A stretch of 62,697 nt of DNA, filler included, from Dugesia japonica (Eukaryota), in NCBI GenBank assembly GCA_001938525.1. It is 6 parts of 6 records of this genome, joined end to end, with 100 filler letters (N's around TTAATTAATTAA, not from the genome) between each part and the next. Parts side by side here need not be neighbours in the genome. Positions count along the whole stretch, not along the records: positions 17,592 to 30,216 come from MQRL01623152.1; positions 30,317 to 42,585 come from MQRL01613385.1; 4 more parts are not named here. One strand, given 5' to 3'. Each line of letters starts with the position of its first letter. The stretch's first letter is position 1. The position numbers and the translations under genes are program-made. The notes beneath the pieces are model-generated. The model had not been told where the DNA came from. It saw only the letters and a program-made list of their open reading frames with translations, and did not search any database. Positions 2,950 to 51,954 of this stretch are shown one piece after another.

Positions 2950-2950
2950 G

Positions 2951-3007: not shown

Positions 3008-3080
3008 NNNNNNNNNNNNNNNNNNNNNNNNNNNNNNNNNNNNNNNNNNNNNNNNNNNNNNNNNNNNNNNNNNNNNNNNN

Positions 3081-3136
<56 letters not shown>

Positions 3137-3151
3137 TAATAATAATAATAA
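2950..3151. repeat. (AAT)n microsatellite with N gap
   Basis: AAT run; explains the poly-Ile ORFs. Confidence 0.95.
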
Positions 3152-7329: not shown

Positions 7330-7512
7330 TATAGATATTCTAATTTTTTTATTCGAATTGTATTTTTCTTGAAGAAGACAATAGTCGATAATTCGACTTT
7401 CTATAAAACAACAATTTGATGATTGACGCAATTATTTTAATGAAATCTCAAATGCGATCAATGGTTAATTGTCCAACAATTATTCTCACAATAATTGTAA
7501 TTGTAAAATTCA
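7330..7512. repeat. Dispersed copy of the 25.6-27.1 kb foldback family
   Basis: GATCAATGGTTAATTGTCCAACAATTATTCTC..ATTGTAATTGTAAAAT is near the reverse complement of about 26135-26215 and similar in direct orientation to about 25762-25822. Confidence 0.7.
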
Positions 7513-8626
7513 TAGAACTGTNACCATCAACCATGGACTTTTGGATTTATACGTTAAATAAAGAAATTGATTATTTTACAACAAAATAAACATGTATTTC
7601 AAATCCAAAAATTATAAAAGTAATTAATTTACTCAATATATTTTCTTGGAGTAATTGTTTAGAATGAATTGTGTAAAAATTGCAAAAAAACTATGAAGAC
7701 AGTTAGAATAATAGAAATATTCAAACAAATGAAATACAACAATGAAAATGTATTGTTTAAAACAAAGACCATAAATAACTGTGGTAAATACATGTTTTCA
7801 ACAGTTATAGTATGGTTTATATTGTATAGCAATCAAAGGATAGATATGAATAGAAATCCCAAAAGATAGTTGAAGAATAGAAATAAGCAGTTAAATACTT
7901 ACATAAATATAAAAAATTATCATTGAAAATGTTGCCATTGGTAACAATTTTGAAAGAAGAAAGATCAATAAACTGTAGAGGTTTCACTTTGAACCAAATC
8001 TTCATAACAATAATCATTTGTACAATTATCAAATATAAGCGTGATATTAATNNNNNNNNNNNNNNNNNNNNNNNNNNNNNNNNAAATAATTAAATACGTA
8101 TTAAATAAATTAATTTATAAAAATAAATATAAAAATTCATATATATATATATATCAAACAGTCGTTTTTTTATACATAACACTTTATAGTATATTTTTAC
8201 AGTATAAACGTAAATAATTTGCTATCATTAATATCTTTTGCTACCAAAGAAAACTAAGAATTTCAATTAATAGTTAGTATAATCATCATTATTTCTTAAA
8301 ACTTACAAAATTATGTTGCTCATTGATTCAACTAGTAATTTACACAATTATATTGATATTTCTTCCCAAAATTTAAAAATAATTTTGCATTAATCTTCTT
8401 CTTTCTTATAGTATTCCAGTAATGTTCTTTTTCATGTAACCCCATAAATTTTTATTGGATTTAAATCGGGACTCTAGACAGCCATTTAAGCACATTTATT
8501 ATGTTTATTTCAAAATATTATTTAGTATATATTATTGAGATTGTTGTCTTGAATAAATTTTAGTTACTTCAAGATTTATTACTTTGCAGATTTCTTTGGG
8601 AGGCAATTCTTATATATATATATATA

Positions 8627-8868
8627 TGTTGGGGTGAAACACCCCTAAAGGAAAGGAAAAGAAATAAAAGGAAAAGCAACCGGAAAAAAAGAAATGAAGA
8701 GAAAATAAAGAANATACAAGAAATGTAAACCAACATAGGATCAGTAATCAAGAAAGAATTATTAAATAAAAAGAATTAACAAGAAAAATATTATAAAGAA
8801 ATAATTAATTAATATGGAAAAATTAATTAATTTTAAAAACTAAATTCTCGAAAATTGGATAAAAATCT
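8627..8868 (+). mobile_element. Probable LTR end (TGTTGGGG...) inserted in a (TA)n tract
   Basis: TGTTGGGGTGAAACACC follows (TA)n; its exact 17-bp reverse complement is at 42742-42758. Confidence 0.55.
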
Positions 8869-8968
8869 NNNNNNNNNNNNNNNNNNNNNNNNNNNNNNNN
8901 NNNNNNNNNNNNTTAATTAATTAANNNNNNNNNNNNNNNNNNNNNNNNNNNNNNNNNNNNNNNNNNNN
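8869..8968. other. Artificial scaffold spacer N44-TTAATTAATTAA-N44 (also at 17492-17591, 30217-30316, 42586-42685, 51079-51178)
   Basis: Identical six-frame-stop 12-mer centred in 100-nt N blocks, five times. Confidence 0.95.
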
Positions 8969-9179
8969 TAAAAGTGTTATGATAGATAAAAATAGAATAT
9001 TAACTTCGGAATTAGAAATTATAGACAAAAGTATTGAAAGAAGTAATGATGAGATAATTGAGGAAAATTATGAGATTTTAGAAAATTTTGATAACTGGAA
9101 TGATCCTTTAAAAATTAAAAAGAATATAAATACAAATGTTCCTATAATGACAATAGATGAAATCATGGAAGAAACATAA

Positions 9180-12100: not shown

Positions 12101-12260
12101 ACCTTTACATAGATTAATATTGTCAGTTTCTTTAAGATAATTTTTTAGATAGATATTGAGATGTTCCTTGATATTGATAATGTTGTCAATATTTTTGAAG
12201 TATGTTCTACAACTTTACCCATTCTTTGCTGAGTGTAAACATGGTTTTAAACAGTTAAAT
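9180..12260 (-). mobile_element. NeSL-like (R2-group) non-LTR retrotransposon, decayed: possible zinc finger, Ulp1-like protease, RT, CCHC remnant
   Basis: RT motifs SSWRPI, LYRLFA, LLSPTQ, WLDLTYTFESIPH, IIKGVKKECSMS, ILAYADN; upstream NNTHWILFYVD and HDCGIFVIHF; multiple stops. Confidence 0.85.
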
Positions 12261-12716
12261 TTTTTTGATAGTTTGACCAAAGTTGTTAACGAAAATAGTT
12301 TAATAAATAAGAAAATTAACTTCATGTAATAAAGTTAGAAAATTTAATTAAAAATATATTTTAATTATAAAATTTTTTAAAATGAATTATTATTTAAATT
12401 TATTTTTTTTAAATATTTTTAAATAACTTTGGTCAAAATTAAATGAAAATATTAATTTGTTTTAAAAATTTGTTTAAAAAATAATTTGATAGTTTATGTT
12501 TTTCTTTTGTCTTGAATAAATATTGGAATGAAAAGTGTTAATTTTTTTAATGCAAAAATGAATGTTGCAAAATCATTTAATATTGAGTATAAGGAAATAA
12601 TTATTATTTAATAGTTTTAACCAATAGAAAGGGATTAAATTCAAAATTAAGATTTAATCAATTCTATTCAATTATAATTATCTTATCAAGCATGTGTTGT
12701 AGAAGTGAAATAAATT

Positions 12717-13340
12717 ATGTCTACAAATGTTAGTTTTGATTTGGAAAATGAATTACCAATTGAAGATTTACCTAACATGGTGGCNNNNNNNNNNNNNNNN
12801 NNNNNNNNNNNNNNNTTATTGCCGAAAATGTTCTGCAGAGGAGATGATATTGAGAAATTCATCAAGCTGTGCGAATTGTATTCTGAAACTAAAAACATCA
12901 CCCAGATGAAACAACAAGATAGATTAGTCTCGTGTTTGTTAGATGAAGATTTATTTGAAGAATATGTAAACACGTTAAAAGTCGAAGGTTTTCAGGCTCG
13001 TTTACGTATGGCATTTGAGAAAGAAAAAAATGTTATCAAAGACTTTCAAAATTTGATTAACTACAAGCGTGGAAATGAAGAGATTCAAATTTATTTTAAA
13101 AATGTAAAAGGTTTAGTAAAGAGATTATTTACAAGTAAAGATTTTATTGAGGAAAGAATGGTAGTAAAGATGCAAGTTTTTTGTTCATATAACAAAATAT
13201 TTGAGGAAGAAATGACTTTAAGAAAACGACAGAATATAGAAGAAATTGAAAACACAATGGTGTTAGTAGATCAAGTAGAGAAAAACAGTGATTAAGTTTA
13301 TGCAGTTGGAAGTTACGCGAGAGTTACAAATCGAAAAAAT
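12717..13340 (+). mobile_element. Ty3/Gypsy gag fragment
   Basis: LPKMFCRGDDIEKFIKLCELY and INYKRGNEEIQIYF capsid-like motifs; related pieces at about 52.5 kb and 54.7 kb. Confidence 0.6.
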
Positions 13341-13369
13341 TACTAATACATATATTAAAGGATCAGTTA

Positions 13370-29330: not shown

Positions 29331-32061
29331 TAATGCCATTGAACAAAATGATGATTCAAAACAAGGCTGAAAGCATTTTCAAAAGAAATTAGAAATAATT
29401 TAACATAATCTAATAATGAAAATGTAGAAACATTTCAAGTTAGCTAGGCTGGTTTGAACGTTTTAAAAAACTTTTCTATTTCCAGTGTTTTGAATTGCAT
29501 CATCATTATCTGGCCCCAATTAAAAACGGAAATCGAGGTTTTGGTTTAATTATTTATAATTATTTTTTACAATATTTTTATTTGTCCAAATTTTGGAAAA
29601 TTCAAAGAATCTTACAATAAAAATTATACAAAACTGTAAGAAAATAGTAGTTGTGCAGCTAAATTTTTGAGATTTCAGTTTTGATTTTCTTCAAAATTAA
29701 AAAAAAAGTTTATTCAAAATAAGACAAAATTTTTTGAGAAATTAAAAAATTAATAGGATAATTAAAAATTGAAACATAAAGAGTTATTGTGAAATTATTA
29801 TATTTTAAATATTTTAAAAAAATTGTTTGACTGAATTAATTTTAAATAAAATAAATAAAAAATCTTCTTTTTTAATAAATAATATATGAAATCAACAACT
29901 CTTCTTAATTCAACAATGAGTGTCTTAGACTCATCTAATAATAACTATAGAACACTAAATGTTATTTTTCATAAATTCATCGAAGAATTTTCAGTGAGAA
30001 TTTAATTTATTTCCACATAAAATTTACAAAATAGCACTATTTTATAAAAATTATAAAAAAGATGTCATGACAAAAAGAATATTAAGTTGGAAAGAAAGTT
30101 TCCGCACTACTTTGTAATATGCATATATTTAGTTATTTAATCTTTATTTATTGTTATAACTATATTTTTTTATATAAATAGATGTTGTTTGAATATTAAC
30201 TTGTATTTTAGCGCTANNNNNNNNNNNNNNNNNNNNNNNNNNNNNNNNNNNNNNNNNNNNTTAATTAATTAANNNNNNNNNNNNNNNNNNNNNNNNNNNN
30301 NNNNNNNNNNNNNNNNAACATTAAAAAATACAGAAATCAGTCATCAATCATATCTTGATTGTTACAATCAGGACAAAAAAGTGTCAGTAGTTTTTAACCA
30401 GCAATATTTTATCAGGTTTTTTAGGTGGGGAAAATTTTTTATGGGAATTTTTTATAGGAATCCGGGCAAATCGTTCATGTTTAAAAAATATGAAAATTGT
30501 AAAATTTTTTAAATTAATTTTTTATAAGAATCCGGAGCATCAAAAATTTTAAAAATAATTTTTTCAATTTTTACAATATATAGTTATTCTTAGATATATC
30601 GACTCAGAATTTTACGGCGATCATATTTGGTTTTCTCAGTATTTTACACAGGATTTTTTCGAAAAAATAATTTCTTCTCAAAATACGTCAAGAAACTGTT
30701 TATTCGATAAAAAATTATTCGCTGATTCTAAACATGTTCACCTAAATAGGGTAAATAGGGAAAATGGGGGGGGGTAAAATAGGACTAAAATGGGGGTAAT
30801 CGTATATTAATATTTTAATTAATATTGTATTATATTTGATTCAATTTAATTTCAATTATATTTGTTTTAATATATTTCGATTAACGCATTCACTTTTTAT
30901 TTAAAATTTTTTAAGTAAGTGATTTATTTTAAAATTATATGTTAATTTAAATAATTAGACAAAATATGAAGCCAATGAAGAATCTGAAAGGAATTTAATC
31001 AAGAAAAATGAAGATGATTATGTTAATATGAATGATTTTTAAATATTTTATGCTTAGTGGTAAAATTTATTACAAATTTATTTACTATTTATTTATAAAT
31101 TTAATATTTAATTAATTTATTGACTCTTTTGTCATTTTATCTGTTATTTCAATTAATTAATATATTAAGATTTTGATTATTATTATTAATTGATTTAATT
31201 TTCTTTAGATAATTGTTGATTGAATTTTTATCCTTTTTACTAATTATTATTATCTCTTGTTTATTATTCTTTTTTCTTTTGAATTATTATTAAAATAATT
31301 ACTAATTATATCTCCATTATTTAAAATAAATTAATTGTATATAACCAGTTTTAATTTTTAGAATTTCCTTATTTAAAAGAAAAATATGCTACTGGTATAA
31401 GAATAAATGTAATCAACCGATATCCCATTAAAAGTGTATTAAATTACTTAATAGGCGTTGGGTTTTCAATGTTAACATGTGTTAAGAAAATATATATATA
31501 TATATACCTGGGGTTAATACTCATATTTATATCTACATGTTTGTTAAAAGTCATTAAAATAATAAAACCCTTTTTGGTGATTTAATAAGAGAATTGTCAT
31601 AAATTTATATGCTCATAGTTACATATTATATCCCAAGAGAATTCGCAAACTAATTATTAGACTCCAATTAACAATAACTTGGATAAATGCATATGGGATT
31701 AATAAATATTGAACTAAAATGTATATTTATATATGCATGTGTGTATGAATAAATGTGCGGAGTTTGAATCGTTAAGACGGTGAATTGATTAACGATTAAT
31801 GAAGCCATCAAACACTATAAGTCTGGGAGTAATTTTTAAAAATTCCAGCAAACTAGAAACAATATTAAAGATGTTTAATTTAAAATCATGAGTCTTTAAA
31901 ACCACAACTAAAATATAAATCTATTTTTGTAATAAACGTCCATAACCGTGTAGATAACAAGCCGTGGATTAAAATTTTCCGTTTTTAAATTAAAACCGCT
32001 TGCTGCTTTAGCGTAAGACGGACTAACACTCTGGTCCGCTGGACCCAAACTAAAGGGCCGG

Positions 32062-32193
32062 ACTGCACTCCCATAACGAGGTTTCACCGGAACCAAACCG
32101 AGAGAGTGTAAGAGACACACGACGCTAAAAAATGCTTATGGTTTTCATGAGTATACCCCTACTATCACAATTTAACTCATGAACACCCAACAA
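32062..32193 (+). repeat. 132-bp GC-rich direct repeat, copy 1
   Basis: Ungapped match to 32983-33114 with 15 mismatches counted by eye; contains the inverted repeat TTCATGAGT..ACTCATGAA. Confidence 0.92.
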
Positions 32194-32982
32194 GCAATTT
32201 TTGAGGGCTCAGCCGGGATTTCATTTACATCATTAGTTTTTTACATTTCAAGACAAAATTTTTTTGGGTATCAAATAAGTTGCGATCATTCTCATTAAAC
32301 CTTGTTTTGACATTTTGTTAATTTTTAGCTAACAGGTAGATAGGACAAGTGTTGGTATAATTAAAAAATGAAAATGAGTTTTAATAATTGATAAAATGCA
32401 CCCGTAAATGTGGTAGTGGGGATTGATGATCATAAACTAAAATTAATGAGAAATTAATTGATAATAAAAAATTTTACTCAGAAAATAAAATCGATGATAT
32501 TTTATTATTAAAAATGAATTTACTTTGAAATGACGTTGAAGTTAATGTTGATTAACAAAGATTTATATCTGGTAAAATCGATTCATCTTAAACTATGTTG
32601 AAATTATTTATTGGCTAACAAAGCTTAAATTGATTTATGTTGAAATAAAATTGTTTTACCCCAATAAAAAGATAGCACTATCGTTTATTAATCATAATGA
32701 AAATCGAAAATAAAAAAAGTATTTTTCTACTTTGAATGTTCGACATGAATTGAAATATCACCGTTTGATAGACTCGAAGTACTCCCTATCATTTGATGGC
32801 GAACCACTTGATCTATGATTCTCTGCTAAATGGTCATAAAGAACAAAAATTAGTATGAGAGGAAGAGACAAGTGACTTGTCATAATCTATGATCATATTT
32901 TATTTTTATTATTGGTTAATGATTTTAAAATAATACCGAAACTTCAGTCGAGCAATGAAGGGTATTACGAGGAATCTTAAAT

Positions 32983-33114
32983 ACTGCACTCCCATAAAGA
33001 GGAGTCACCGGAACCAAACCAAGAGCGCGTAAGGGACACACGACGCTAAAAAATGCTTGTGATTTTCATGAGTATGACCCTACTATCACAATTAAACTCA
33101 TGAAAGCCTAACAA
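32983..33114 (+). repeat. 132-bp GC-rich direct repeat, copy 2
   Basis: About 89% identical to copy 1. Confidence 0.92.
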
Positions 33115-33172
33115 TAATATTATTATTAATATTAATATAATTTCATTAAAATAAAATGATGAACTTCTTCAT

Positions 33173-33495
33173 TTGGCATGATGATACCATATTATACATT
33201 ATTGTTCTTCATATGTGATGAACTTATTTAGTTATAATAATATAAACATTTATTATTTTGTCATCTATGATGACCTTATTGTTTTTTTTTAATAATTTAC
33301 TATCATTTACATTAGATGTTGACTTATTAATTGAATATTACAACATTTATAACTTAATTTAGCATGATATCATATCATACATTATCATTCATATATGATG
33401 AACCTATTTATTTAAAAATATAAACATTGATTATTTTGTCCTCTATGAAGACTTTATTATTGGTGACCTATTAATTAAATAATTCAACACTATAA
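33173..33495. repeat. Degenerate tandem duplication, about 185-bp period
   Basis: GCATGAT..GATGAAC..ATATAAACATT.ATTATTTTGTC.TCTATGA present twice. Confidence 0.7.
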
Positions 33496-33524
33496 AGTCC
33501 AAGTATATATATATATTGTATATA

Positions 33525-33665
33525 TAATGGATAAATGACGAATTCCCTGCAAGGTTTTACCTTTTTTGTTCACTTACATGTTTAATACCTAAAAAATAAC
33601 AATATAAAATTGTGTATTATGAAAGTAAATTGTAAAACTAACAGGAATTCGTCATTTATACATTA
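33525..33665. repeat. Inverted repeat, about 25-37-bp arms
   Basis: TAATGGATAAATGACGAATTCCCTG ... CAGGAATTCGTCATTTATACATTA. Confidence 0.85.
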
Positions 33666-34033
33666 CTTAGGTTTTGTCTTGGATTTTTTATTTTTATTAT
33701 TTTTAAATATAATTATTTTATAGTTAAAATCAAATGGATTCTAATAATACACTTGTAATAAATGGAATAAATATAGTAAGTGGATCAACTGAAGAAAATT
33801 TTTATAAACTCTTAAAAAGCTATAATTTTTTTGAAAATTCAGTTTTAACATTTTCTAGACAAAAAGATGTAAATGAGAAAATATTTAAGAGAATTTAATT
33901 TTTCTTATAATAGAAGAACAATGATTAAAACTCATAAAAGAGATGTTAATGGACAATATGAATCTTTACCCAAAAAGTTTGAACATTTTTATTTTTTATT
34001 ATTTTATTTTTTTTATATTTTTGCTTTAGAAAA

Positions 34034-34760
34034 ATGAAAGTTTATAAAACCTCCACAAATTGTGGAAGTGTTTGTATGTTTAGAGTTGATTTAAATTGTA
34101 ATTATTGTAATTAAATTATTACTCGACAAAATCATGCAAGATCACATTACAACAGTGAATTGCACAAAACACAAGTTCTAAAATTAAAAGAAGAAACTAA
34201 AAAATTGTTTGATGAATTACTCTGGTCGAGAGGTGAATAATTATAAAATTAATGAAACAAGAAAGTTATTTAAACATTTAAAGAATATAAAATATTACAA
34301 AATCGAATATTTTAAAGAAAGTAAAATTGAATTAACTAGAAATGTTCAACGATTAAATTTTAAATTAATAAAAAAGAAAATAATTAAAATTGTTGATGTA
34401 TATTTTGATTATTCGAAAAGATGATGTTGAGATTGAGTGTAAATTTTAATTACACTAAAGATGAAAAAAGATTATTTAATTCATATTTAAATAATGAAAG
34501 AATTTGTAAAACAGTGAAGCAAAAATTATTGTAATTGATTTAATAAATCAACTTCAAAGATATATGGAAGATGAAGATCAAAACGAATCTGGATGGAATA
34601 AAGATCATATTGTTGATTTTAAAATTGAACTTTCTAAATATCAATCATTGGTTGGATCATCTTATAAAAAATTACCCTTTGTTAAACAAGATATAATTAA
34701 TATTAAAAATAAAGATGAAAAATGTTTTATATATTCTATTTTAGCTCATAAACATTTGGA
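34034..34760 (+). pseudogene. Maverick protein-primed PolB, N-terminal region only
   Basis: Zinc finger CNYC..HARSHYNSELH, then ESGW..IELSKYQSLVGSSYKKLP..IINIKNKDEKCFIYSILA, as in invertebrate Polinton PolB N-termini; truncated. Confidence 0.75.
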
Positions 34761-34779
34761 TTTAGATTTTTATTTTCAT

Positions 34780-35300
34780 CTTCATCCAACTTTGCTCATT
34801 AACATTAAAATGTTCATTTAAATTATCATCCCTTTTATTTTAGAGAATATTTAGGATTTAATAATTCAGAATATGATTTTTTAGCAATTGAATAATCACT
34901 TAAAATAATAATTTTATAAATCTAAATATTTTTAGGTAAAACTAAAGTAACTATCTACAATATATTTATCGTTTAATAGAATTTCTTGTTATTCTACAAA
35001 AAAAGTCAATTCTTGTTTTTTTTAATAAAATTGTATTCAAATACTTTTGGAATATTATCAATTATTACATATATTTCAAAAAACGAAATATCACAATATC
35101 CTTGAATTGTAAAATAAGCTTTATCTCTTGTTAGATTAAAAGGAAAATAAAGTTCTAATGGTTTTTCAAGAAAATAAAATTTTATTATGTTATCATTCTG
35201 TTTTGGGGTTGGATTACTTAAAATTTCTTTTCTTTTTATTTTAAATGGTGGTATTAAACCATAATAACTTGGTAATTTATAATGATTATTAATTATTCAT
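34780..35300 (-). pseudogene. Decayed Maverick ORF of unknown function downstream of the protease
   Basis: Co-oriented, abutting frame HYKLPSYYGLIPPFKIK..PLELYFPFNLTRDKAYFTIQG, with frameshifts. Confidence 0.4.
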
Positions 35301-35682
35301 TAATAATTTCATCAAAAGTTTTGTGTTGAAGAGAGTATAAAAAAAATAAACATAATATTCCACAAATACTAGTTTCATAAGGTTGAACTTGAATTTTATT
35401 ATATACATTTANATGTTTTTCAATTTCTTTAAAAGGTTTTAATCCATAAGAATCAAAATAATAACCTTTATAAAAAGCAACCCAATGACTTACATTTTGA
35501 TTTTGAATGATTTCCGGTTGATTGGAAGGAAATGGATTTATATCTTTCAAGATTTCAGTCACAACTTCATCTTTCATTAAAACCTCAATTTCAAAATTTA
35601 AAAAATCTGAAATAAAATACAAATCAAAATTAGTTTTAGTATTTATTCCAAATGTTTTTAAAAAATCTAAGATTGTATACAT
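35293..35682 (-). CDS. Adenain-like (clan CE) maturation cysteine protease of Maverick
   Basis: TNFDL..VLMKDE..SHWVAF..YYFDSYGLKP..QVQ..SICGILCLFFL, with catalytic His, Asp, Gln and Cys in order. Confidence 0.88.
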   Translation of the reverse strand: MYTILDFLKTFGINTKTNFDLYFISDFLNFEIEVLMKDEVVTEILKDINPFPSNQPEIIQNQNVSHWVAFYKGYYFDSYGLKPFKEIEKHXNVYNKIQVQPYETSICGILCLFFLYSLQHKTFDEIINE

Positions 35683-36325
35683 TTTCTTATATGAACTAAT
35701 ATAGAAATAGTTTGTCCACTAAAATCTATTGGATTATTATTTCCATCTACAACACTAAATTTTAAAGAATCAATATACCTAGAATTTAATCTTGAATACA
35801 TTGAAGAATTTTATAACCAAAACCTACAGTATTTACAGGAAAAGAATATAATAAATTTGATGGAGTACTGTGAATATAATTATTACCTTTAAGAAAATTC
35901 AAGTTATATTCATCATATTTATATTTGAAATATCAATCTTATTTACAGAATAATATTTTCCTGGTAAATATTTTTTAGGTGAAAAACCCAAGATTGTATG
36001 AAAAAAAGATTTACCATCAAATTTGATTGTATGTTTTGTTGTTAAATTACATTTTGTTGTTGATCTTTTAATTTATTAGATATTTCTTAAATTTCATAAG
36101 CACCAGGCTCAATCGTTTTTTGTTCGTATTGATGGGACCCTTAGGAATTTTCTTTTAATTTAAAACCATTATTTTTACTAGTAACATTAAAAATTATATT
36201 ATAACAACTAAAACATATTAATCCCATTTCATAATCAGAATCTAATTCTATTGGAAATCTTAAATCAACTTCTAAATTAAATTCTTTACCAACAACTAAA
36301 AATTGATAAGAACTTTTCTTTATTT
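35670..36325 (-). pseudogene. Maverick minor capsid protein (penton), frameshifted
   Basis: FPIELDSDYEMGLICFSCYNIIFNVTSKNN, EPGAYEI, ILGF, LLYSFPVNTVGFGYKI, IDSLKFSVVDGNNNPIDFSGQ. Confidence 0.82.
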
Positions 36326-36363
36326 TAAATTTACTAAATCAAAAACTACTACTAAAACTACCA

Positions 36364-37179
36364 CTACACAAAATATTTATTTTTATAAAGATATTTTTCT
36401 TTGGTAATTAATTCTTGGTTTAATAATTCTTGAAAAACCAATTTAATTTCTTTGTGTAAATTTTTATGACCTGCTTTTACTGCTGAAATTAATGTTAATC
36501 TTTCAAATAAAGTTATTGGATCTGAGTTTGAAGTAAAGTCAAAACCTTCTCCTTTAATAATATCTTTTTCAAGAGTTGGTTTAATAATCTTGCTTAAATA
36601 ATTACAATAAGCAACTCTAATATTTAATTTATTTAAATAAATATCAAAATTACTTACTTCCTTACTTTCTTTTCCTAAAATTAAATTCATTACTTCTTCA
36701 GTATAAGGTATTTGTTCTTTTGATAAAAAGTATTTCTTTCCGTTTTCTTCAAATAAATTTATTACTGTATCGGGTTGTATTGGATAAATTAATTTTTGAA
36801 ACTTTTTATCAAAAATATCTTCAGTTTTAATTTCTGGCTTAATTAAGTTAGATAAATTATTTTCTTGGGGATCATCAATTTTAGGAAAGAATGGTATTCT
36901 ATTTTTTTGTTTTAAATAAAGTTGTGTGAATCAAGTTTTAAATGTTTGTAAATCAGATTGTAAATCAGGTTTTAAATTAGATTGTGAATCAATTTTTAAA
37001 TCAGGTTTTGTATTTAATTTTTCAATAGCTTTAATAGTAGGTTGTTGTTCAAANGTTAAAGTATCTTGTAAAGTTTTCGATTCAATTACATTACCAGTTA
37101 ATAAATTATTATAATCATCTTGAGCTTTAATTAAATCTTTCAAAAGTTTTATTCTTGTCAATGTTTCTTCATTATCCAT
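36364..37179 (-). pseudogene. Conserved Maverick accessory ORF, split by a frameshift
   Basis: N-terminal QQPTIKAIEKL; C-terminal GEG..DPITLFERLTLISAVKAGHKNLHKEI..QEL resembles the Polinton DPNELxxRLxLL..GN..NE motif. Confidence 0.65.
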
Positions 37180-37190
37180 TTTATTTAGGA

Positions 37191-37712
37191 TTATGTTGAG
37201 GATTTTTCATAAGGTTTTAATATAAACCATCACCACTAGTATTTATTTGTACTCCTTTTTTAAAGTATTTAGTAATCATCTTTAAATGGGACCCTTTGGG
37301 ATCTGAATTTGATAAACTATTTTTTAAATATTTATGAATTGCACTTCCTTCATAAGGTTTTAAGTAAAGTCCTGATGCAGAACTAGTTTTATTATCATGA
37401 AGTTTTGATTGACTCAGAACTTAATTTTTCTATTTAAATTAATTTTTTTTCTGTAATTCAACTAGCTCAGTTTCTTTTTGTTTTTTAATTGCATCTCTAG
37501 AATTACTTGCAGTTGATGCTATTCTAGTGGCAATTGTAGCCGGTATTGCAGCAAGAAAAGCAAATCCAACTTAATGTTCTTTAATTAATTTCTTTTTTAT
37601 TTCTTCTTTAACTTTATTACCAATCCAATAGTTTTTACCATTATTTTTTTACAGATTTACATTTATTTGAATTTATCAAATCAATTAATTCTTGTTCTGA
37701 TACTGAAGACAT
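37191..37712 (-). pseudogene. Putative virion core or membrane-active protein of Maverick
   Basis: *VGFAFLAAIPATIATRIA hydrophobic helix, then SGLYLKPY and GDGLY(L)KPY motifs; internal stops. Confidence 0.6.
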
Positions 37713-37754
37713 TTTATTTAAAATAATAATATTACCAATAACTATATACTTAAA

Positions 37755-38310
37755 ATGTCTAAAAGAATTCAAAAACTTGAAAAACTCAAAAAACAATTTT
37801 CGTTCGTTGATATTTATTTTTCAATTATTGATACTGATGCAATTATAATTCTTCAAGAGAGTTTGGATCTTATTTTTAATAATATTGTTACAAATATTAA
37901 AAAAAACTCAAGTTAAAGCCAAACTTGAAGAAATTGAAAGTGAAGATCAAAATGAAAGTAAAGTCTGAAATTGAAGATGAATCTGCTTCTGAAAGTGATC
38001 TTGAAGTTTTAATTAATAAAAAAAAACTCAAGCCACTTTGGAGAGAATGGAAAATGAAGATCAAATTACAGTTAATCTCTCTTTTTCAGAAGATAGTGAA
38101 ATGATTGTTAAACAAAATGTTGAAGAAGTAATTGTTAAATCGATTGTTAAGGAACCAGAATCTGAAAGTGAAGTTGAAAATGTAATTCCAAAACAAAAAT
38201 TAAAAAAGACTACACCAATATTTGGGTCCCATCCAAAATAAAATTCCTAAATTAAAACAAAAAACTGAAAGTTCAATCCCAAATCAAAGTAAAATCCCAG
38301 TAAAACTCAG
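37755..38310 (+). pseudogene. Divergent acidic (Glu/Ser-rich) ORF of the Maverick, frameshifted
   Basis: MSKRIQKLEKLKKQ.. starts 42 bp from the opposite-strand ATG; ESEDQN repeats. Confidence 0.45.
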
Positions 38311-39169
38311 TAGATTATGGATCATCACTGTCTGATAGAAAGAATGGAGGAACGAGTATTGGGGCAGCTGATGGACGACACGCAGTTCGCTACTGAGACG
38401 CAGGACTCAGTGATCGCCAAGGTCGAGTCACTGCGGAAATAAATGTGTTATTAATTATCCTAATAAATTCATATTATATTTATATCACAATGTTGTTTTA
38501 AAGTTATGCTTACGGGCTACAGAGGCGGCAAAGGGTCGACTAACGAAAGTGAATTTTAGTTTTACTTGTTTTATTATAAAGAGAGTGGCCTATGAATTTT
38601 ATGTGGTGTGGAATTCGGATTTTTAATTTTAATATCAATTAATGAAATTATGGTCAACTCATTTTAATACCTTTTCTAATAATCAGTCATCCTGAATTAT
38701 TTTAGTGAGTAAAGCCCAAGGCGATACATCCAGGAAGAAGCTGGTAAATGCACAGAAAATATGGATGGAGGAGCGCAGAGAGCTACGAAATTAGGTGCTC
38801 TGATTAAAGGGCCAGGAGATAAAACACTCATCTAAGTACCAACAGCTTAAAGAGAAGGAGTTGGCACTCCAACAGGCTAACCGACTCATGACCAATGTCA
38901 TTAAATACAAAGTTTTTAGTTCTAATTAATGTCTGTTGAACAAGAGTTACTAAGTTCAATGAGTTATTGTGGTACATAGAAATAGAGAAAAAGACGCGAT
39001 ACCGCAAAGTCGCGCTGAACCCGTGGAATGAAGGGGCATGGTACAGATGTACCATAAACGCTCGAAGTTTCTAGGTATGCCCCTAGATTATTGGTTTAAT
39101 AGTTAAAGATAAAATGGGGTGGAGAAATATGAATGAACTAATAACTAAAAAACAAAACCCTAGCAACCC

Positions 39170-39900
39170 AACATATGTAAAAGAATTTGGATTATTACAG
39201 ATCATAAAGCAATTAATTTTATGATAAATACAAAAAACCTGTAACGCCACACTTTCAAACATGGCGGAAGTTTTTGGGCAATTTAGATATTAGAATGAAA
39301 TATTGAAAATGAGAGTTGCATGGCAGATGCAATGTCTAGGAAGGAATGTCCATAATACCATTAATGTCAAATGATTCATGAAAATCCTAAAAAAGGCAAA
39401 ATTAAAACAAAGGTTTTTGCAATAGAATTTACAGAAAACGGATTAAAATGATAAAAGAACTCTGAAGAAATTGAAAATATTAAAAAAAATATTTTTTCTA
39501 ATAAAGTAGAAGATAAAATCTGGATTCCATTTGATAGAAAAGTTGAATTTATCAAAGAAATTCATCTTAGTTTATGTCATGAACTAGTTTATGTCATAAC
39601 ATAAAATAATAAAATTTTCAAATTATTTTGAAAATTACGAAAAATTAAAACTTATAAAAACCTTAAAAAAAAATTATAACAATTCTAAAATTATAATCAA
39701 TTTAGTAAAAAGTGCTGTCTGTATATTAATACTTGGATTCCATTTGATAGAAAAGTTGAATTTATCAAAGAAATTCATCTTCGTTTATGTCATGAAAGAA
39801 TTAAGAAAGTATATGATTTTGTTCGAGAAAACTTTGAAATGAAAAATACTTTAAAAGCAATTATGTTGTAGGGAGTTGCGAATTTAAAAAGCGAAAAAAA
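39170..39900 (+). mobile_element. Ty3/Gypsy RNase H end and integrase zinc-binding fragment
   Basis: KEF..TDHKAINF, ADAMSRKEC, WIPFDRKVEFIKEIHL.LCH; 63-bp duplication at about 39520 and 39734. Confidence 0.75.
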
Positions 39901-40912
39901 CAGGAAAATCGAAAGATAATAAAATATTATGTGATCAAGATATATTTTTATCGATTTCTGTGAACATTATCACGAAAAGTTTACATTATGCCTATTATAC
40001 AGCACTCTCTCCCAATAATTTTGTAAATTGTTTGGATAGAATTTTAAAATTTGAAATTTCAACATGCGCATTATTTTTATGCTCAGCAATATTACTACCA
40101 CTACCAAAACGATTATGCTCTTGAATCCTTGTACAAAGATGACGGCAATCACTCCAATGACAATTTTATTATTTTATAGGATTTCAAAAAAATTTAATAC
40201 AGTTTAAAATTAAAAATTTTTTTAAATATTTGAAAGACGTTTTTTGATTTTTATAGGATTTTAAATTGTAAAAAAAATTTCATAAAATATTATTATAGGA
40301 ACATGTTATTAGAACCAAAAAATTTTTATTAGAAAAAACTTCAATATTTAAAATTAAGAATTATGATTATAGCCATCTTATATTCACCATAATTGCTTGA
40401 ATATTTTTTTAAATAAGACAGACTAAATAAAATTATTTTTCATTTTTGTCTGAAGTTGACGGTTGATCCGTCAAAATATATAACAAAAATAAATTTATTT
40501 TAAATGGCGTTATTTATTTTTCATAAAACATTTACCGTCATTTTGTACATATTTATTTATAAATTAATAATAAATTGTTTTTTATTTTCATTTCTATCAA
40601 ACTTAAATTTTTTTCATAATCTTCTTTATATTTTTAAAGCTTTTTTACTATTATATTTTACTTCGGGAATTTTTTAGTTTTTTGGCAATCGATTGCTTAA
40701 TAAAAAAAATAATAATATTAATAGGGAAAATATAGGCAAAACTTTAGACAAAAAGTTGCAATTTTATTAATGGAAATTTCTTATTTTTTTCTACCAAATT
40801 ATTCAAACTTCATTGTTTTAACTGGGATTTATCATTGGCTTTATTCCGACTAATAAATAAGTAAGTATAATAAGAAATTATGTATTAAAATTATTTAAAA
40901 ATCTATTAAAAA

Positions 40913-41580
40913 AACATTGGAAAGAATGGATTCAACAATGATAATCCTGATTATTGGGAATATGACATCGAAAGATACCTTAACTATGAGATTGACGTAA
41001 TCATCGTCGATGAAACTGATTATGAGCATTATAAAACTTTTATTGGGGAATTAAAAAGAGAATTGAGATTCTATCAAATTAATCATATTAATGTGACAGT
41101 TAAAAGTAGTAAAGTTGAATGTGCAATTGAAAAACAGGTAAAATACACCTAAAATGCAAGCGTCTTGACGTATCCCACATTTACAATTACTAATAATAAT
41201 GATAACCCAAACCTAGCAAATAAACTTATTAAATTAATTATTTTTTTATTTTATTATTATTTTTTTTATATTTTATTTTCAAATTTTATTATTTTAGATT
41301 TGACCTTAAGAACCATACGTAATTATACGCCGAAAAATACATAGCCGTTTTCAGACGAAGAAACCCCATTAAATGGGCATCGTAGATCGGTTGTCGCAAG
41401 GATATCAACTAGCAGGAATCAGAATCTACTAGCTGATTGGGAGTGTCCCTTTGACGATCTAATGATGAAACTCTTCTAAGGCATAGAATTTTTAGATAGT
41501 ATCAAAGGACTATCGAAAACACTATGAACACTCGAGACATCAAATACAAAGTGGTGGACTTCTTTTTGCCATGTAAATGC
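40913..41580 (+). pseudogene. Exon-like segments of an unidentified, decayed gene
   Basis: About 75-codon open frame (NPDYWEYDIERYLNYEIDVIIVDE..) ending CAG|GTAAAA; next ttttag..|GTAAGG segment has in-frame stops. Confidence 0.3.
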
Positions 41581-41895
41581 GTAAGGTTATCACTAATCAA
41601 ACACTAGCCAGGCTCAGTCGGCACTGCTTTCGTTAGAAGTAGTAACAAGGCCTAGTGCTTACATTTAGGTAACATTACACCTTACTGTATTCAATTTATT
41701 TCTATATTTTCTTGTCTATTCCCTTCATAATAATTCTTATATACACTCATATTTTGCTGTGACATAGTTTTATCTATTTTTTTTTGTCAAAACCCAAAAT
41801 GCCGCCCCAATCAGCTAACTCAGATCCCTCAACTTATCTTTTCACATTAACGCATTATCAATAATTTTAAGTCACGCATAATAAATAAAAGTATT

Positions 41896-42122
41896 TCAAT
41901 AGACTTCCGAGATTATATAGATATTGTCCATATGATATATTAAGTCCTTCAAATTTCTTTGTTCTGATGTATAAGCATTTTTATCACCATAAACAATACC
42001 GGTAAGATAATTAAGCATATGGTAATAAATATGCATAGAAAATGGCATGAGAATTGTTAATATATAAATCTCATTGTGCGAAAAGTAAAACCCTTCAGGA
42101 CAATCGTCGAAAATTTGGATTA
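41896..42122 (-). CDS. Possible exon, unknown product
   Basis: Pyrimidine-rich ttgttag acceptor, then an open frame IQIFDDCPEGFYFSHNE.. Confidence 0.3.
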
Positions 42123-42525
42123 CTAACAAAAAAACAACATTTTGATTTAAGCTTTTTAATTTATTGAAATTTTAAAAGAGATTAAACCAATAAAGCAATA
42201 AATATTGAGATAACTAAATTCAACATTTATCTATTATTATATGCTTGTGAATAATGTAAAAATAGATATAGTAGATTCGAAAAAGAATTGACTTATCATT
42301 TATTACGAAGGACTTATTATCCAAAGTAATATAATGCTTTAATTCGGAATTTACTATTAAGAAATCATTGATTTTTTTGTAAATAATTTTTACTATTATC
42401 ATTTTTATTATTGCTGCTTGATTATAATTATATCATAATTATTATTACTGTAATTATATTATTATAATCATTACATTCTTATCATTATTGTAATTATTAT
42501 ATTCATCATTAGTGTTTCATTATTG

Positions 42526-42526
42526 C

Positions 42527-42585
<59 letters not shown>
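42526..42585. repeat. (ATT)n microsatellite
   Basis: ATT run abutting a spacer. Confidence 0.9.
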
Positions 42586-43800: not shown

Positions 43801-44257
43801 ACGGGTGGTAAGCGAATAGCGCCTCCGACATCAAGATAAACTGAGTTGCCTAGGTGGTATATCACCAACTTTTTAAAGCTATATTAAGAGAAATAAGGAA
43901 TTTCTGATTTATTATTTTTATTTAAAAAAATATCATATATTTGAAAGTTTTAATAAATTTTTTGATAAATAATTTTTAAATAAAATGTATTATTTAATAT
44001 ATGTAAAATTGTGTAAAAAATGTTTCTCAGAAGTTTGATTATTGCTATTTTGAATTATAAATAAGACCTACAGAAATACTAACAAAGGATTTTTCAAAAA
44101 ATGGTGTGTTTTAATGTGTCAATGTATTTTGATAAATTCAAGATTTTTTGAATTGTTTTATTTTAATTTCTTTAATTTTAGTACTTAGTTGCAAAACTTT
44201 ATTACTTATTAATAATATTTGAATATCATGAATGTTATATAAAATTTTAGAAATTTA

Positions 44258-47200
44258 ATGAGCGAAATTTCATTACAGCCTTTGGTTGAAACAACTTTAA
44301 GTGTAGTTTTAGAACCAAATTCTATAGATTTAAGTTACAAAGTCAATGATCACCACACAAATAATTTTTCACTATCACAAGAACGAAGTGAAAGTGATTC
44401 TATTCAATGTTATATGAATCCAACAAACGCATTGTCATTTATTAATAATTCCAATGTTTTCCAAACTGTGGAAGATGACTGCGGTGAAATATATTATGCA
44501 TGCCTTGGTCCTAATAATAATAATATTGTTAATCACCCGGAACAAGTTTTACAGTTAATTCCTCAAAATCAGATTTCCAATTATATTATTTCAGATAAGG
44601 AATATGCAAATGTAAATTTTGTAAATAGCTCTGTAATCAATGAAAATAATTATTATGATATTCACAATTCTACCTACGATTCTTCTAAATTTCATTATGA
44701 AAATTTGGTGACTAACTCTCATAAATCGATTTGTAATAATGGTAAGCAAATATGTGAAGTTTGTTCTCTTGAATTTCCTTCTAAACGAACATATTTGAAG
44801 CATATGTCTATTCATGAAAACGATCGTGAATTTAAGTGTTCTTGGTGTAAATTAAGCTATAATCATGAGGTCAATTTGCTCGTTCATATTGCAATAATTC
44901 ATTCAAATGAATGCACTGTAGTTGATGAAGTTAGTCAGGAAATTAATTATAAGTGTGCAATTTGCTCTTGCATATTTTCTAGAAAAAAAGCTCATCAAGC
45001 TCACTGTTTAATTCATCAGGTTGATGAAGAATTACAATGTGAACACTGCACATCGCTGTTTAAATGTAAAATTCTTCTTGATCGACATTTAAATGATCAT
45101 AAAATTGGAGATGAATGCTCTGAAAGCAAGATGCCAACAAATTATTTAAAATGTAAAATATGTCATGAAATATTTGAAAATGTGGGTAATGTAAAGAAAC
45201 ACTATATAAGATGTCACCCTAAGAATAAGTTGCAGTGGAATGAAGAAATGGAATCAGCAAAATTGGAAGAAACTATTGTTTTAGATGAAGAAAAGTCAGG
45301 TAAGCGGAAATCTAGTAAAATAGCTTGTCAGACAATTAAGTTATATGCGCAAGGTCGAACTCAGAATAATGAAATAAAACAGGATAGTAACAAGTCATTA
45401 AATAAAAGAGGAAGGCCCAAAAAATCTGAAGGTAAATCATTGAAAAGTAATAGTAGTTGTATGGTTTGTAATAAATCTTTTAAAACACCAATTTTGTTAC
45501 GTCGTCATGAAGTAACTCACACTGGTGTTAAAGAATTTGAATGTCCAATTTGTAAAAAAGGGTTTACTCAAAAATCCTCTGTAAAAATTCACATGGTTGT
45601 TCATGATAATGTGAAAGGATTTTCATGTCAATTTTGCAGTAAGACATTTACATATGAGCATAATATGAATACTCATATTAAAGTGATTCATAAAAACAAT
45701 GATATGCTATCCAAATCCCAAGAAGCAATCGTAGTAAATGAATCTAATGAACTCCCAAAAAATGCAGTTAACGCTGAATCGCAAGATGCAAGATTAAGAA
45801 AAATAGACTGCGTCTCTGAAGTTGTTAATCCTTCTACAAATGATGATGCTGAAATTTCTCAATATTTGTGGAATGATAATCCGTTAGACCATTCTCTCGT
45901 TGACAATATGTCATATCAGCCTAATCAAACTGTTAGTGATAGTTATATGCCATCTGCAGTTAATTTTAGTAAAGTTGATTGGGATAAATCTCATCAAGGT
46001 ATTCTTCTATCTGAAGATATTGAGCGAATTGATAAAGAAACGGGTCAAGTCCAAATTCATGAAGTTATTAAAGATCAAGTCACAGGTTTTAAAAGATTTC
46101 GTTGTCGATTTTGTTGTAAACTTTTTAGGAAAAGTTGTGATTTAACTAGGCATGTTCGTCTGCATACTCAACTCAAACCATTTCAGTGTTACATGTGTCA
46201 TAAAAGTTTTCGTTTGAAATCAATATTAAAAAATCATTTCAAATCTCATTGGAAATTGAAAGAATATTCGTGTGAAATATGTAAAAAAAGTTTCAATTTG
46301 AAACAGACATTAAAAGTACATCAGCAACTTCATAATCCAAATACTTTGAAATATTGCTGTAAATCGTGCGATAAACAGTTTAATACATCATTTCATTTAA
46401 AATACCATACTAATACTAATCACCGAGTTGTAATTCAGGATCTAGAAGAAATTGCGAAAATTGAAACCGAGAAAGCTATAAAACCTTTGATCTGGAATGA
46501 ATTACTGAATCAGCCAGTACCGATTCCTGATGTTGAAAGAAAAAAATTAAATAATCGTCTCTTTAAGTGTAATCATTGTGGCAAGTCTTATAAATTCAAA
46601 AAATATTTAAATGAACATTTAAAAGATCATTTATCTGCTAATAAAACCAATATTTGTCATTTTTGTAATAAATCATTTGTCACATATCGATCCATGCAAC
46701 AACATTTGCGTACTCAACATTTAAATCGAAGAAAATTCTCTTGCTTACAATGTCCGGCATTTTTTATTACAAAAGCTTCTCTTATTCGACATGGATTAGT
46801 TCATTCCAATTCAAAACCTTTCGCTTGCCCACTTTGTCTAAGACGATTTAAAGCGAAAATCTACTGTGATCGGCACATCTCAGCAAAGAAATGCAGTAAA
46901 CGGAAATCAAATTTTAACAAATCTGAAGTTTCTAAAATTGGAGAAAGCAATTTGTTGATTGGTTCAATTAATTCTTTAGTCAATCCATTAGAAACAGAAA
47001 TAATGACTAATGGCCAAACTGAAACATTTGCTAATTTTCGATTGGAAGATTTAGATTTGAATACGTCGCATTCATCAAACATTTTAGTCACGAATTATGT
47101 AAATGAGTTCTCGTCATTTCCTAGCACAGAGAAATACATGATAGTGTCTCTTGATAATCCTACTGGAAAAGACCATATAAACAATCAGAATGTCAATTCT

Positions 47201-49033
47201 TGTAATCAAAACACATATTACACATCTAACATTCTTCTTGATGATTCATCTTTGCTAGAAATTGCTAGAAGTCAAATCGATAACAGTACAGACTCATCTG
47301 AAAATATAATGGGTCTATTAGAAGGTCAAATAGGAGTTACTCCTATCGATATTGGGTCATTATTTGCCGTTCAAAGCTTCAATGGAAATTTGACTTCGAT
47401 TCCGGGTCAATTAGTTGATGGAACTATTCAGTCGAGTGACATTGATTATCCTCAGCAAGATAATATTTACTACTATCAAACAATTAATGAGATTTCATCA
47501 GAATGTCAAGAGCCCCCAAAGGGCTCTTTAGCCGACAAATTTCCTATACTAAAAGCTTCTTTATTTTCTGATGAAGAATTAAATAACTCTAAAGTAACAT
47601 CCAGTGTCCCGGTTTATAGTAATAACAATAATGCTCAGTTTATTTTACCTAGTGATAATAATCAATTGAATGTGTCTACTGCTACAGGTATAATAGAAAA
47701 AATACACGATATGAAATTTTATCATGGGTGTGCTAATTGTGATCAGCAATTTAAAAATTCAGCAACCTTAGTTCAACATGTCAAAAATAGTCACAAAATT
47801 CAAAGAGATTTCGTGTGCAATGTGTGTCACAAAGCATTTTCCGCAAAATTATCATTATGGGCTCATTCCAAAACTCATATAGATTCTCGTTCATTTGGTT
47901 GTTTCGTTTGTATAGCTTGTAACCAGAGATTTATATCAGTGCCGTCTTTAAGTCGACATGTTAGAATGCAACATAATGATAATTTGAATCTTTATCGATG
48001 TACACATTGTAATAAAGTTTATAAAACCACACGAGAACTTGATTCGCATATTAAACAACTTGTTTCAGATTATGACGCTTTAATTATTGATTCTAATATT
48101 ATAGAAAATTCAAATTCCAATGAACTGTTAATAACAGGACAATTTGCCAAGTCTAATACTGACAGAGCTAATGAAGTAGATATTGATAAAGTTTATTTTA
48201 CCAGCTTGAACAGTTCTCAAATCGACCATATTGCAACTTTAGATGTTTCAAGTGCATCAAAATTATCATTGAAAGAATTGATTAAAGCAGCTAAAGAAAC
48301 TAAAGAGTTATCAAAATTAACCGATTTTAACAAATCAACAATAGATTCTCTATTGAGTTATCCTTACAGTTGTTCGATTTGCCACAAAGGTTTCAATAGA
48401 GCTTCCAATTTACAACAACATTTATCGGTTCACACAAAACTGAAGCCATATCAATGCACAAAGTGTCCAAAACGGTTCAGACATCGTTGTAGCTTGAAAA
48501 CACATGAAGCTACAAAGCATTGTTCAGTTACGAAATTGCTCAGATGTCATTTATGTTTGAAATTACTTAGGTCTCAAATAGCATTGAGAAATCATATGAA
48601 ACTTCATATGCGAAATTATGAGTTTCATTGTAATATATGTTTTAAAGGTTTTGATACATTAGAAGAGCATTCTAAACACGCTGAATTAAAGCATAGCCAA
48701 AATAAAGGTACGTCAAAATTCACTGAGACAATTAATAGTGAAGTAAAAGAAATTGCTTCAGAAATTCCTAAAAAATTATTCAAATGTCTTTCTTGTTCTT
48801 TTATTTTTAACACAAGATCAAAATATGACAATCATTTTTGTGTTGGTTTAAATACAGAAAAGTCACAACTGAATCGTTGTTGCGATAAAACTTTTGAATC
48901 TACTTCTCAGTTGCTTTATCATATGCAGGAAGTTCATAATCAAATTATTCAATATAATTGTGCTCAATGTAATATCATGTTTGCCCAAGAATCATCATTT
49001 ATTAATCATCAAAAGTCTGTACATCATTTATAA
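44258..49033 (+). CDS. ZNF236: Zinc finger protein 236-like, about 27 C2H2 fingers in clusters plus an AT-hook
   Basis: Intact 1591-aa ORF. The clusters CEVCSLEFP..FSRKKAHQAHCLIHQVDEELQC, CRFCCKLFRKSCDLTRHVRLHTQLKPFQC and KPFACPLC..YCDRH parallel ZNF236 as I recall it; KRGRPKK; AATAAA at about 49125. Confidence 0.85.
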   Translation: MSEISLQPLVETTLSVVLEPNSIDLSYKVNDHHTNNFSLSQERSESDSIQCYMNPTNALSFINNSNVFQTVEDDCGEIYYACLGPNNNNIVNHPEQVLQLIPQNQISNYIISDKEYANVNFVNSSVINENNYYDIHNSTYDSSKFHYENLVTNSHKSICNNGKQICEVCSLEFPSKRTYLKHMSIHENDREFKCSWCKLSYNHEVNLLVHIAIIHSNECTVVDEVSQEINYKCAICSCIFSRKKAHQAHCLIHQVDEELQCEHCTSLFKCKILLDRHLNDHKIGDECSESKMPTNYLKCKICHEIFENVGNVKKHYIRCHPKNKLQWNEEMESAKLEETIVLDEEKSGKRKSSKIACQTIKLYAQGRTQNNEIKQDSNKSLNKRGRPKKSEGKSLKSNSSCMVCNKSFKTPILLRRHEVTHTGVKEFECPICKKGFTQKSSVKIHMVVHDNVKGFSCQFCSKTFTYEHNMNTHIKVIHKNNDMLSKSQEAIVVNESNELPKNAVNAESQDARLRKIDCVSEVVNPSTNDDAEISQYLWNDNPLDHSLVDNMSYQPNQTVSDSYMPSAVNFSKVDWDKSHQGILLSEDIERIDKETGQVQIHEVIKDQVTGFKRFRCRFCCKLFRKSCDLTRHVRLHTQLKPFQCYMCHKSFRLKSILKNHFKSHWKLKEYSCEICKKSFNLKQTLKVHQQLHNPNTLKYCCKSCDKQFNTSFHLKYHTNTNHRVVIQDLEEIAKIETEKAIKPLIWNELLNQPVPIPDVERKKLNNRLFKCNHCGKSYKFKKYLNEHLKDHLSANKTNICHFCNKSFVTYRSMQQHLRTQHLNRRKFSCLQCPAFFITKASLIRHGLVHSNSKPFACPLCLRRFKAKIYCDRHISAKKCSKRKSNFNKSEVSKIGESNLLIGSINSLVNPLETEIMTNGQTETFANFRLEDLDLNTSHSSNILVTNYVNEFSSFPSTEKYMIVSLDNPTGKDHINNQNVNSCNQNTYYTSNILLDDSSLLEIARSQIDNSTDSSENIMGLLEGQIGVTPIDIGSLFAVQSFNGNLTSIPGQLVDGTIQSSDIDYPQQDNIYYYQTINEISSECQEPPKGSLADKFPILKASLFSDEELNNSKVTSSVPVYSNNNNAQFILPSDNNQLNVSTATGIIEKIHDMKFYHGCANCDQQFKNSATLVQHVKNSHKIQRDFVCNVCHKAFSAKLSLWAHSKTHIDSRSFGCFVCIACNQRFISVPSLSRHVRMQHNDNLNLYRCTHCNKVYKTTRELDSHIKQLVSDYDALIIDSNIIENSNSNELLITGQFAKSNTDRANEVDIDKVYFTSLNSSQIDHIATLDVSSASKLSLKELIKAAKETKELSKLTDFNKSTIDSLLSYPYSCSICHKGFNRASNLQQHLSVHTKLKPYQCTKCPKRFRHRCSLKTHEATKHCSVTKLLRCHLCLKLLRSQIALRNHMKLHMRNYEFHCNICFKGFDTLEEHSKHAELKHSQNKGTSKFTETINSEVKEIASEIPKKLFKCLSCSFIFNTRSKYDNHFCVGLNTEKSQLNRCCDKTFESTSQLLYHMQEVHNQIIQYNCAQCNIMFAQESSFINHQKSVHHL

Positions 49034-51199: not shown

Positions 51200-51954
51200 A
51201 TATACACCATTTTTTCGATTATTTGTCGCCATCTTTGAGGAAGCTTCATGATTCCATCCTCCCAGAACTTGTCAACTTTTTAGGATTGTTAAATACAAAC
51301 CATTTTTTATCACCAGTTATCATTCTTTTCATAAACGAATCATCGGTGTTTCTTACAAGTAACGAATTNNNNNNNNNNNNNNNNNNNNNNNNNNNNNNNN
51401 NNNNNNNNNNNNNNNNNNNNNNNNNNNNGAATCGATTGGAAAATGGTTACCAAGGCCATTCAAATGTCTTGAAACAATCACATGAGAGATTTTGAGTTTT
51501 TCTGCGATTGATCGTGTTGTGGAATGAGGATAAATTTGAAGAATTGATTCAATGGCATCACCATCAACGACACTAGGCCTGCCCGAGCGCTCGCTGTTTT
51601 CTAATTTAAGATATTCGCTTTTAAATTGCGCAAACCATTTATAAACCGTGCTTTCCAGAACGGCGTCATCCCCATAAACAGAACAAATCTTTCTTTTGGT
51701 TGAAGCACTATTTTTCCCTTTTCTGAAATAATACAGCATTAAGGGCCTGAAATGGAACTTTTTCCTTTCCATTTTGATAGATAATTTTACGATTTAGAAA
51801 TTTAAAAATGTGATCATTAATTATGTCAAGTGATGAAGTAAAACAAAGTTTTTATGATAAAATATATATTACTAAATTATATTAGTAACTTATATCTCGT
51901 TTAGGTGTTCAAATACAATATAGTAAAACTCTACGAACTTATGTTACAACCTAA
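51200..51954 (-). mobile_element. mariner element, 5' half with TIR
   Basis: MERKKFHFRPLMLYYFRKG..VYG..TVYKWFAQFK..RSGRP, then MITGDKKW; TIR TTAGGTTGTAACATAAGTTCG flanked by TA at 51955. Confidence 0.92.

Follow-up and report, generated by a model that had tools for sequence, protein, structure and literature searches.

A probable defective Maverick/Polinton fragment in Dugesia japonica, with a truncated polymerase gene facing a decayed morphogenesis module

A stretch of assembled DNA from the planarian Dugesia japonica (GCA_001938525.1; 62,697 nucleotides, filler included, hereafter the window) contains the beginning of a protein-primed DNA polymerase gene (pPolB) that converges on a minus-strand cluster of Maverick/Polinton structural genes. 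The arrangement raises the question of whether this locus is the relic of one larger element, the meeting point of two, or a member of a shortened family that intact helpers amplified. N/TTAATTAATTAA spacers separate the segments that were joined to make the window, and the original prediction, made from the sequence itself, was right to place the whole finding inside one spacer-free segment, 30317-42585 (the MQRL01613385.1 part; ~22% GC). Our reading is that ~33600-38100 is probably a Maverick/Polinton fragment, likely a single dead copy, whose middle was deleted and whose ends were lost by later rearrangement (features are collected in Table 1).

Profiles were built from 26 Polinton loci on viral contigs (L003-L028), retrieved with an alignment of ten long relatives of the polymerase stub, and searched against the window, cut into 2,603 stop-to-stop pieces. 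We treat these loci as Polintons because a double jelly-roll capsid and an A32 ATPase were recognized among the neighbors of their polymerases (two of the eight proteins scanned); L001 was dropped as a false match on a phage. Pfam scans made directly on open reading frames (ORFs) of the window gave nothing significant, the protease reaching only E 0.5. Copy status was read from contigs of public runs of one organism (X1, X2, X3 and X7 are cited here) aligned to the window at ≥80% identity. The public runs contain 11-43% of sampled window words, and summed contig depth is not a copy number and shows family size only.

Homology to pPolB is carried by a frame at 34510-34776, whose homologous part (34510-34755) matched the pPolB profile with E 7.8e-17. 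A word-indexed search for long relatives of the stub found none among 40 candidates; an unindexed search succeeded, returning 599 protein matches at E≤1e-3. Among 14 long stub matches, DNA_pol_B_2 was recognized in two and an endonuclease VII-like motif in eight. The earlier observation of a plus-strand PolB N-terminus that stops at ~34760 holds: of 151 tblastn matches, 84 stop at 34755 and 148 at or before 34770, and no significant pPolB continuation, none above controls, was found past 34755 in any plus frame. Relatives extend a median of 995 residues beyond the stub endpoint (12 of 18 full-length relatives, those with a scorable motif), and in 11 of these 12 a His-Tyr motif lies 92-125 residues past the Cys. 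Under the scheme of terminal protein, vOTU, exonuclease and palm (TP-vOTU-EXO-PALM) laid out in PMC11161782 (published sources are cited here from excerpts), the stub would retain the vOTU Cys and would have lost the vOTU His, exonuclease and palm. The stub has neither exonuclease nor palm; the loss amounts to ~3 kb of the polymerase gene and takes in the vOTU His and every catalytic motif. The upstream part of the stub, 34035-34509, resembles a polymerase upstream (terminal-protein) region by eye, and its score against a terminal-protein profile is not above that of controls (58 of 150 reach it). The coding-like fragments that precede it had no Pfam match. Summed depth in X1 jumps from 96 to 3,240 at bin 33589-33997, a bin shared by a small inverted-repeat element. 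Just before the element body lies a 141-base element (33525-33665) that resembles a miniature inverted-repeat transposable element; its inverted ends are 22 bases long and complementary at 21 of them.

The minus-strand cluster had been described as a GLYL-motif gene, a conserved ORF, a penton, a protease and an unknown ORF, and reading frames, tblastn and profiles bear this out; the profile and structure tests proposed at the same time support a Polinton penton, an adenain-type protease and a truncated pPolB. For the protease, tblastn matched 15 locus ORFs (best E 2e-11). Its His, Asp, Gln and Cys are invariant over 12 aligned sequences, comprising the window copy and 11 relatives (unnamed proteins, 44-51% identical), and Peptidase_C5 is touched by eight of the 12 (best E 3e-4). 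A structural model (predicted local distance difference test, pLDDT, 84) has clan CE folds as its top matches, including adenovirus, Sputnik and adintovirus proteases, none of them at E≤1e-3. A PDB sequence search with the protease and a search of a phage collection were without matches. The copy has short deletions relative to the 11 relatives. Two single bases are undetermined in the assembly, one inside the protease (35412) and one inside the PZ-like gene (37054).

The penton profile matched four colinear pieces of the pseudogene (E 2.9e-9, 3.7e-5, 0.27 and 1.7e-6), and tblastn matched seven of 11 family members. When an intact relative was modeled (pLDDT 77), it gave 66 minor capsid/penton matches at E≤1e-3, with E values in BFVD down to 6e-15, and its model aligned to the mavirus penton over 233 positions (Z 11.7, root-mean-square deviation 11.6). 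A single jelly-roll penton is thus present as a pseudogene, and its family is predicted from the models to fold as a penton. The conserved ORF belongs to a family that we take to be the one called PZ: its C-terminal part, a 188-residue ORF, was the sole match among the 2,603 pieces for a family present in eight of the 26 Polinton loci (E 2.4e-6). A RepA-like identity for this ORF, suggested by atlas rows with recognition under the reliable level, was dropped in favor of the Polinton family match, and a word-indexed search with it found nothing among 78 candidates. The GLYL-motif gene was the best of the 2,603 pieces against a profile of six locus ORFs with the motif, a weak match (E 0.038), and had no PLA2 or gasdermin Pfam match. 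It appears to resemble small basic core-protein-like genes that lie beside PZ or the protease in Polintons, and may be tied to the adintovirus pX-like domain. In L003 a single 344-residue ORF (L003:10220-11251) contains both the GLYL motif and the protease, which are separate genes in L005, L013 and L025; it is either a natural fusion or a sequencing error.

Profile searches of the segment agree with the earlier statement that integrase, packaging ATPase and major capsid are not visible. The ATPase profile (19 sequences) had no match below E 0.87 in the window, and no Walker A motif occurs in six frames of the segment. A profile of nine locus integrases had no match in the element below E 1.5 and found an rve piece on another segment (E 0.002); two major capsid profiles had no match in the element. 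Because this copy is a fragment, the missing integrase says nothing about its parent. Two of the Polinton ORFs in the retrieved loci (L002:686-2059 and L027:2740-4248) have the protease fused in frame to the integrase. The major capsid gene usually lies about one gene from the penton (PMC4028283), and ORF X, at that distance, is by position an unproven candidate for a cut major-capsid gene. Its alignments to major capsids were not above shuffles (11 of 40; 32-261 of 300), and it had no relative in Pfam, the atlas or the viral contigs.

The family to which the fragment belongs is large and highly repeated in the host genome. Contigs ≥80% alike cover every bin of the body with summed depths in the thousands in three runs (1,394-14,886 over 33589-38087 in X1; the X2 and X3 curves look alike in shape). 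This version is likely a single locus, because the depth of near-identical contigs resembles that of the low-copy flank. Over the whole segment, 1,582 of 22,260 X1 contigs are ≥99% alike; among the contigs listed, near-identical ones inside the element have depths of 5.9-12.2 (36776-37023 in X3; 37691-38012 in X1, X2 and X3), and the flank at 31391-31817 has depths of 4.2-6.3. Position 38310 is spanned in three runs, by contigs of depth 9-13. Near the acidic ORF the X1 depth is 1,394 and then 64, and the element lacks its right part.

Together, these features are those of a defective Maverick fossil, namely a cluster of core genes within 3 kb, lesions and large losses, and related copies in the host; the copy is not an intact Polinton, and it has neither the two termini nor the near-identical dispersed copies of a non-autonomous element. 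The parent element would have been copied by a protein-primed polymerase with terminal protein, vOTU, exonuclease and palm, integrated by a retroviral-type integrase, and packaged in capsids matured by the protease, as outlined in PMC11161782 and PMC4028283. In this copy an internal deletion would have taken ~3 kb of the polymerase gene, and the penton and GLYL-motif genes carry stops and frameshifts. Since the catalytic polymerase and, at the sensitivity of the profiles, integrase, ATPase and paired ends are missing, the copy presumably could neither replicate, package nor move in trans.

Several points weigh against this account. Among the contigs listed, none bridges 34755-34826, so the junction is putatively genomic. 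No intact family member was seen, and the gene order and the deleted parts are deduced from distant relatives. Summed depth does not tell how many copies exist, and the source sample may itself be among the best runs. Finally, a breakpoint within 34826-35102 would be common to other copies. One X7 contig parts from the window at 34826 and carries 268 letters unlike it; this contig and another class (depth 61.6) cover parts of 34826-35102, with 34950 joined to 35018. If the break lies before 34826, it is therefore absent from the copy in the X7 contig; if after, it is shared.

The claim that the locus is a deletion derivative stands as the likeliest reading, with the data compatible also with two nested copies that meet here. 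In that alternative, which we consider unlikely, the junction marks where two different Maverick copies met, one inserted into the other or both brought together when a repeat cluster rearranged, or else repeats were joined during assembly. The lack of a bridge over 34755-34826 among the contigs listed speaks for it. What is probably a third piece of polymerase sits out of order on the same strand, 3.7 kb upstream, which makes the locus a mosaic, and depth differs between the polymerase side (2,765-6,462) and the protease and penton (10,456-14,886). However, bins of the PZ-like gene (2,977-4,880) are as deep as those on the polymerase side, and depth therefore draws no line between the two halves. 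Three runs have contigs across the right junction at 38310. Gene orders of the loci indicate that convergent polymerase and structural modules are the normal Polinton layout, and one deletion is therefore the simplest account.

More unlikely is an old non-autonomous subfamily, one that lost its polymerase but still had the terminal-protein region and some of the capsid module, was amplified in trans by intact helpers and later decayed. Such elements would have a precedent in the mobile PolB-less polintons of butterflies (bioRxiv 10.1101/2025.02.07.637071), and other host contigs run unbroken through 34826-35102, one class of them at depth 61.6. A polymerase-like register followed by eye to ~34975 would put the breakpoint inside that shared stretch, but controls equal the register in 72 of 150, 116 of 500 and 175 of 1000 cases, and the polymerase side is missing from one contig at 34826. 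No paired ends were found, and window-identical contigs have depths of 4-13 among the contigs listed, like the flank, rather than indicating near-identical dispersed copies; an old amplification is compatible with these depths. The earlier suggestion of a non-autonomous subfamily therefore finds no support, given the lack of paired ends, the decayed genes and the single-locus-like depth of identical contigs. Harder still to credit is its fuller form, a flatworm-type Maverick satellite subfamily in which the catalytic polymerase was deleted, the terminal-protein region and a capsid cassette were kept, helpers supplied amplification, and ORF X is a diverged or novel capsid gene.

The protease had been singled out as open among frameshifted neighbors. 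Its frame is indeed open, and two neighboring frames, the 188-codon (564-base) PZ-like piece and the 96-codon ORF X, are open too. That selection has kept it open as a host-adopted gene is very improbable: all catalytic residues are present, but a longer neighboring frame is open as well, the copy has its short deletions, and a hand count from frame maps of at least 13 lesions in 2,688 neighboring coding bases predicts 1.9 lesions in the 384-base protease, with a chance of none of 0.16 (0.06-0.32 for 20 to 8 lesions). The open frame would then reflect chance and not selection.

The ends of the element fared differently from its genes. The original prediction took 30386 as the left terminus and AGTGTC as a target duplication, and neither survives. 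Polinton terminal inverted repeats are given as 100-1500 bp and target duplications as 5-8 bp (bioRxiv 10.1101/2023.08.22.554363). In the segment, AGTAGT/ACTACT occurs at chance frequency (five observed vs 7.5 expected), the best inverted partner of the first 50 bases matches at 29 of 50, and ACT followed by AGTGTC does not occur; no terminal inverted repeats or second target copy were found in 30317-42585, a segment that may end before any partner. The hexamer lies in repeated sequence. Host contigs follow the window through 30390 and then diverge (six in X1 and seven in X2 among the contigs listed), and because they match that far, the supposed target duplication and five terminus letters are a shared repeat. 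The probable polymerase remnant that ends there was the top piece of the 2,603 against a pPolB C-terminal profile, a weak match (E 0.11), and was pairwise significant against one of eight pPolB C-termini (0 of 200 shuffles) and not against the other seven. The very high-copy repeat that follows may be a real Polinton end, joined over a five-base overlap, and nothing found ties it to this element. Between it and the element body lies ~2.5 kb of mosaic, largely low-copy DNA; X1 depth from the proposed end to the body is 26-620, except at two copies of a short repeat. These copies (32062-32193 and 32983-33114) are 89% identical, have summed depths in the thousands and had no Rfam match. At the right boundary proposed earlier, AGTAG (38309-38313) faces outward in low-depth sequence.

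The locus resembles the defective Maverick fossils described in PMC8097293, where 96% of vertebrate loci are reported as defective, many without ends. Like them, it has several core genes, stops and frameshifts and no discernible terminal repeats, and it belongs to a large family as do the defective copies that number in the hundreds in some of those genomes; unlike them, it resides in an AT-rich invertebrate host. Maverick remnants are also reported from nematodes (bioRxiv 10.1101/2024.01.15.575659), and planarians are described as having abundant Mavericks, with expansions and piRNA control (bioRxiv 10.64898/2025.12.11.693146 and PMC8532177), to which our element is likened, by description only, in its abundance in a very AT-rich genome. 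With intact Polintons and adintoviruses (PMC11161782, PMC8502044, PMC4028283) it shares a polymerase N-terminal motif and penton, adenain, PZ-like and GLYL-motif genes. Unlike intact Polintons, its polymerase is cut after the vOTU Cys and it has no ATPase, integrase or recognizable major capsid. Adintovirus accessory genes include PLA2X or GasderminX (PMC8502044); here no PLA2 or gasdermin domain was detected beside the weak GLYL-motif match. The GLYL-type gene lies beside PZ, as in L004 and L007, whereas the order GLYL-PZ-penton-protease-X occurs in none of the 26 loci. The proteins are distant from those of these loci, the protease being 27-46% identical over matched parts, and are closer to the unnamed proteins. 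The PolB-less polintons that stayed mobile in Pieris mannii and others (bioRxiv 10.1101/2025.02.07.637071) likewise lost polB and kept structural genes, but those elements have terminal inverted repeats and near-identical dispersed copies, and this copy has neither. A literature search for non-autonomous or defective Polintons/Mavericks surfaced a single paper, on Tlr1; named non-autonomous families may exist in Repbase.

A single fossil matters little in itself; what it points to is a large Maverick family with proteins far removed from those in viral-contig collections, and intact natural copies of this family could fill a gap in Polinton sampling. Should the junction recur between paired ends, helper-dependent Mavericks would gain a further example, and retention of the terminal-protein region in cis would be put to the test; even this would be a variant rather than a new kind, because PolB-less mobile polintons have already been reported.

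Table 1. Features of the locus, in window coordinates
Position	Strand	Feature	Observation
30318..30390	+	Probable pPolB 3' remnant (from another copy, or displaced)	Weak profile match
30386..31134	.	Very high-copy repeat	X1 summed depth 66,228 and 26,263, above element body
33734..34034	+	Coding-like fragments, start of repeated element body	Depth rise
34035..34755	+	pPolB 5' stub	Broken N-terminal region, then start of vOTU-like domain with Cys motif
34756..35010	.	Junction zone, convergent polymerase stub vs minus-strand module	Breakpoint somewhere within
35009..35296	-	ORF X	96 open codons abutting protease stop
35296..35682	-	Adenain/Ulp1-type (clan CE) maturation protease	Frame open; profile E 4.5e-19
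35670..36338	-	Penton (minor capsid protein) pseudogene	At least 2 in-frame stops, at least 3 frameshifts
36364..37179	-	Conserved PZ-like Polinton protein	One internal stop at 36931-36933
37217..37712	-	GLYL-motif gene	Split across at least 3 frames
37755..38240	+	Frameshifted acidic ORF	Repeated-body signal fades

Beyond the element, a further high-copy repeat with an internal 70-base duplication occupies 38906-40541, and the one frame tested there had no Pfam match. Other segments of the window hold transposon fragments at 6061-6408, 10085-10543, 16933-17331 and 51431-51793 (DDE_1, reverse transcriptase, rve integrase and mariner helix-turn-helix). Lastly, the next segment contains an uninterrupted plus-strand ORF of 1,596 codons encoding C2H2 zinc fingers (44243-49033), a candidate for a long single-exon host gene.

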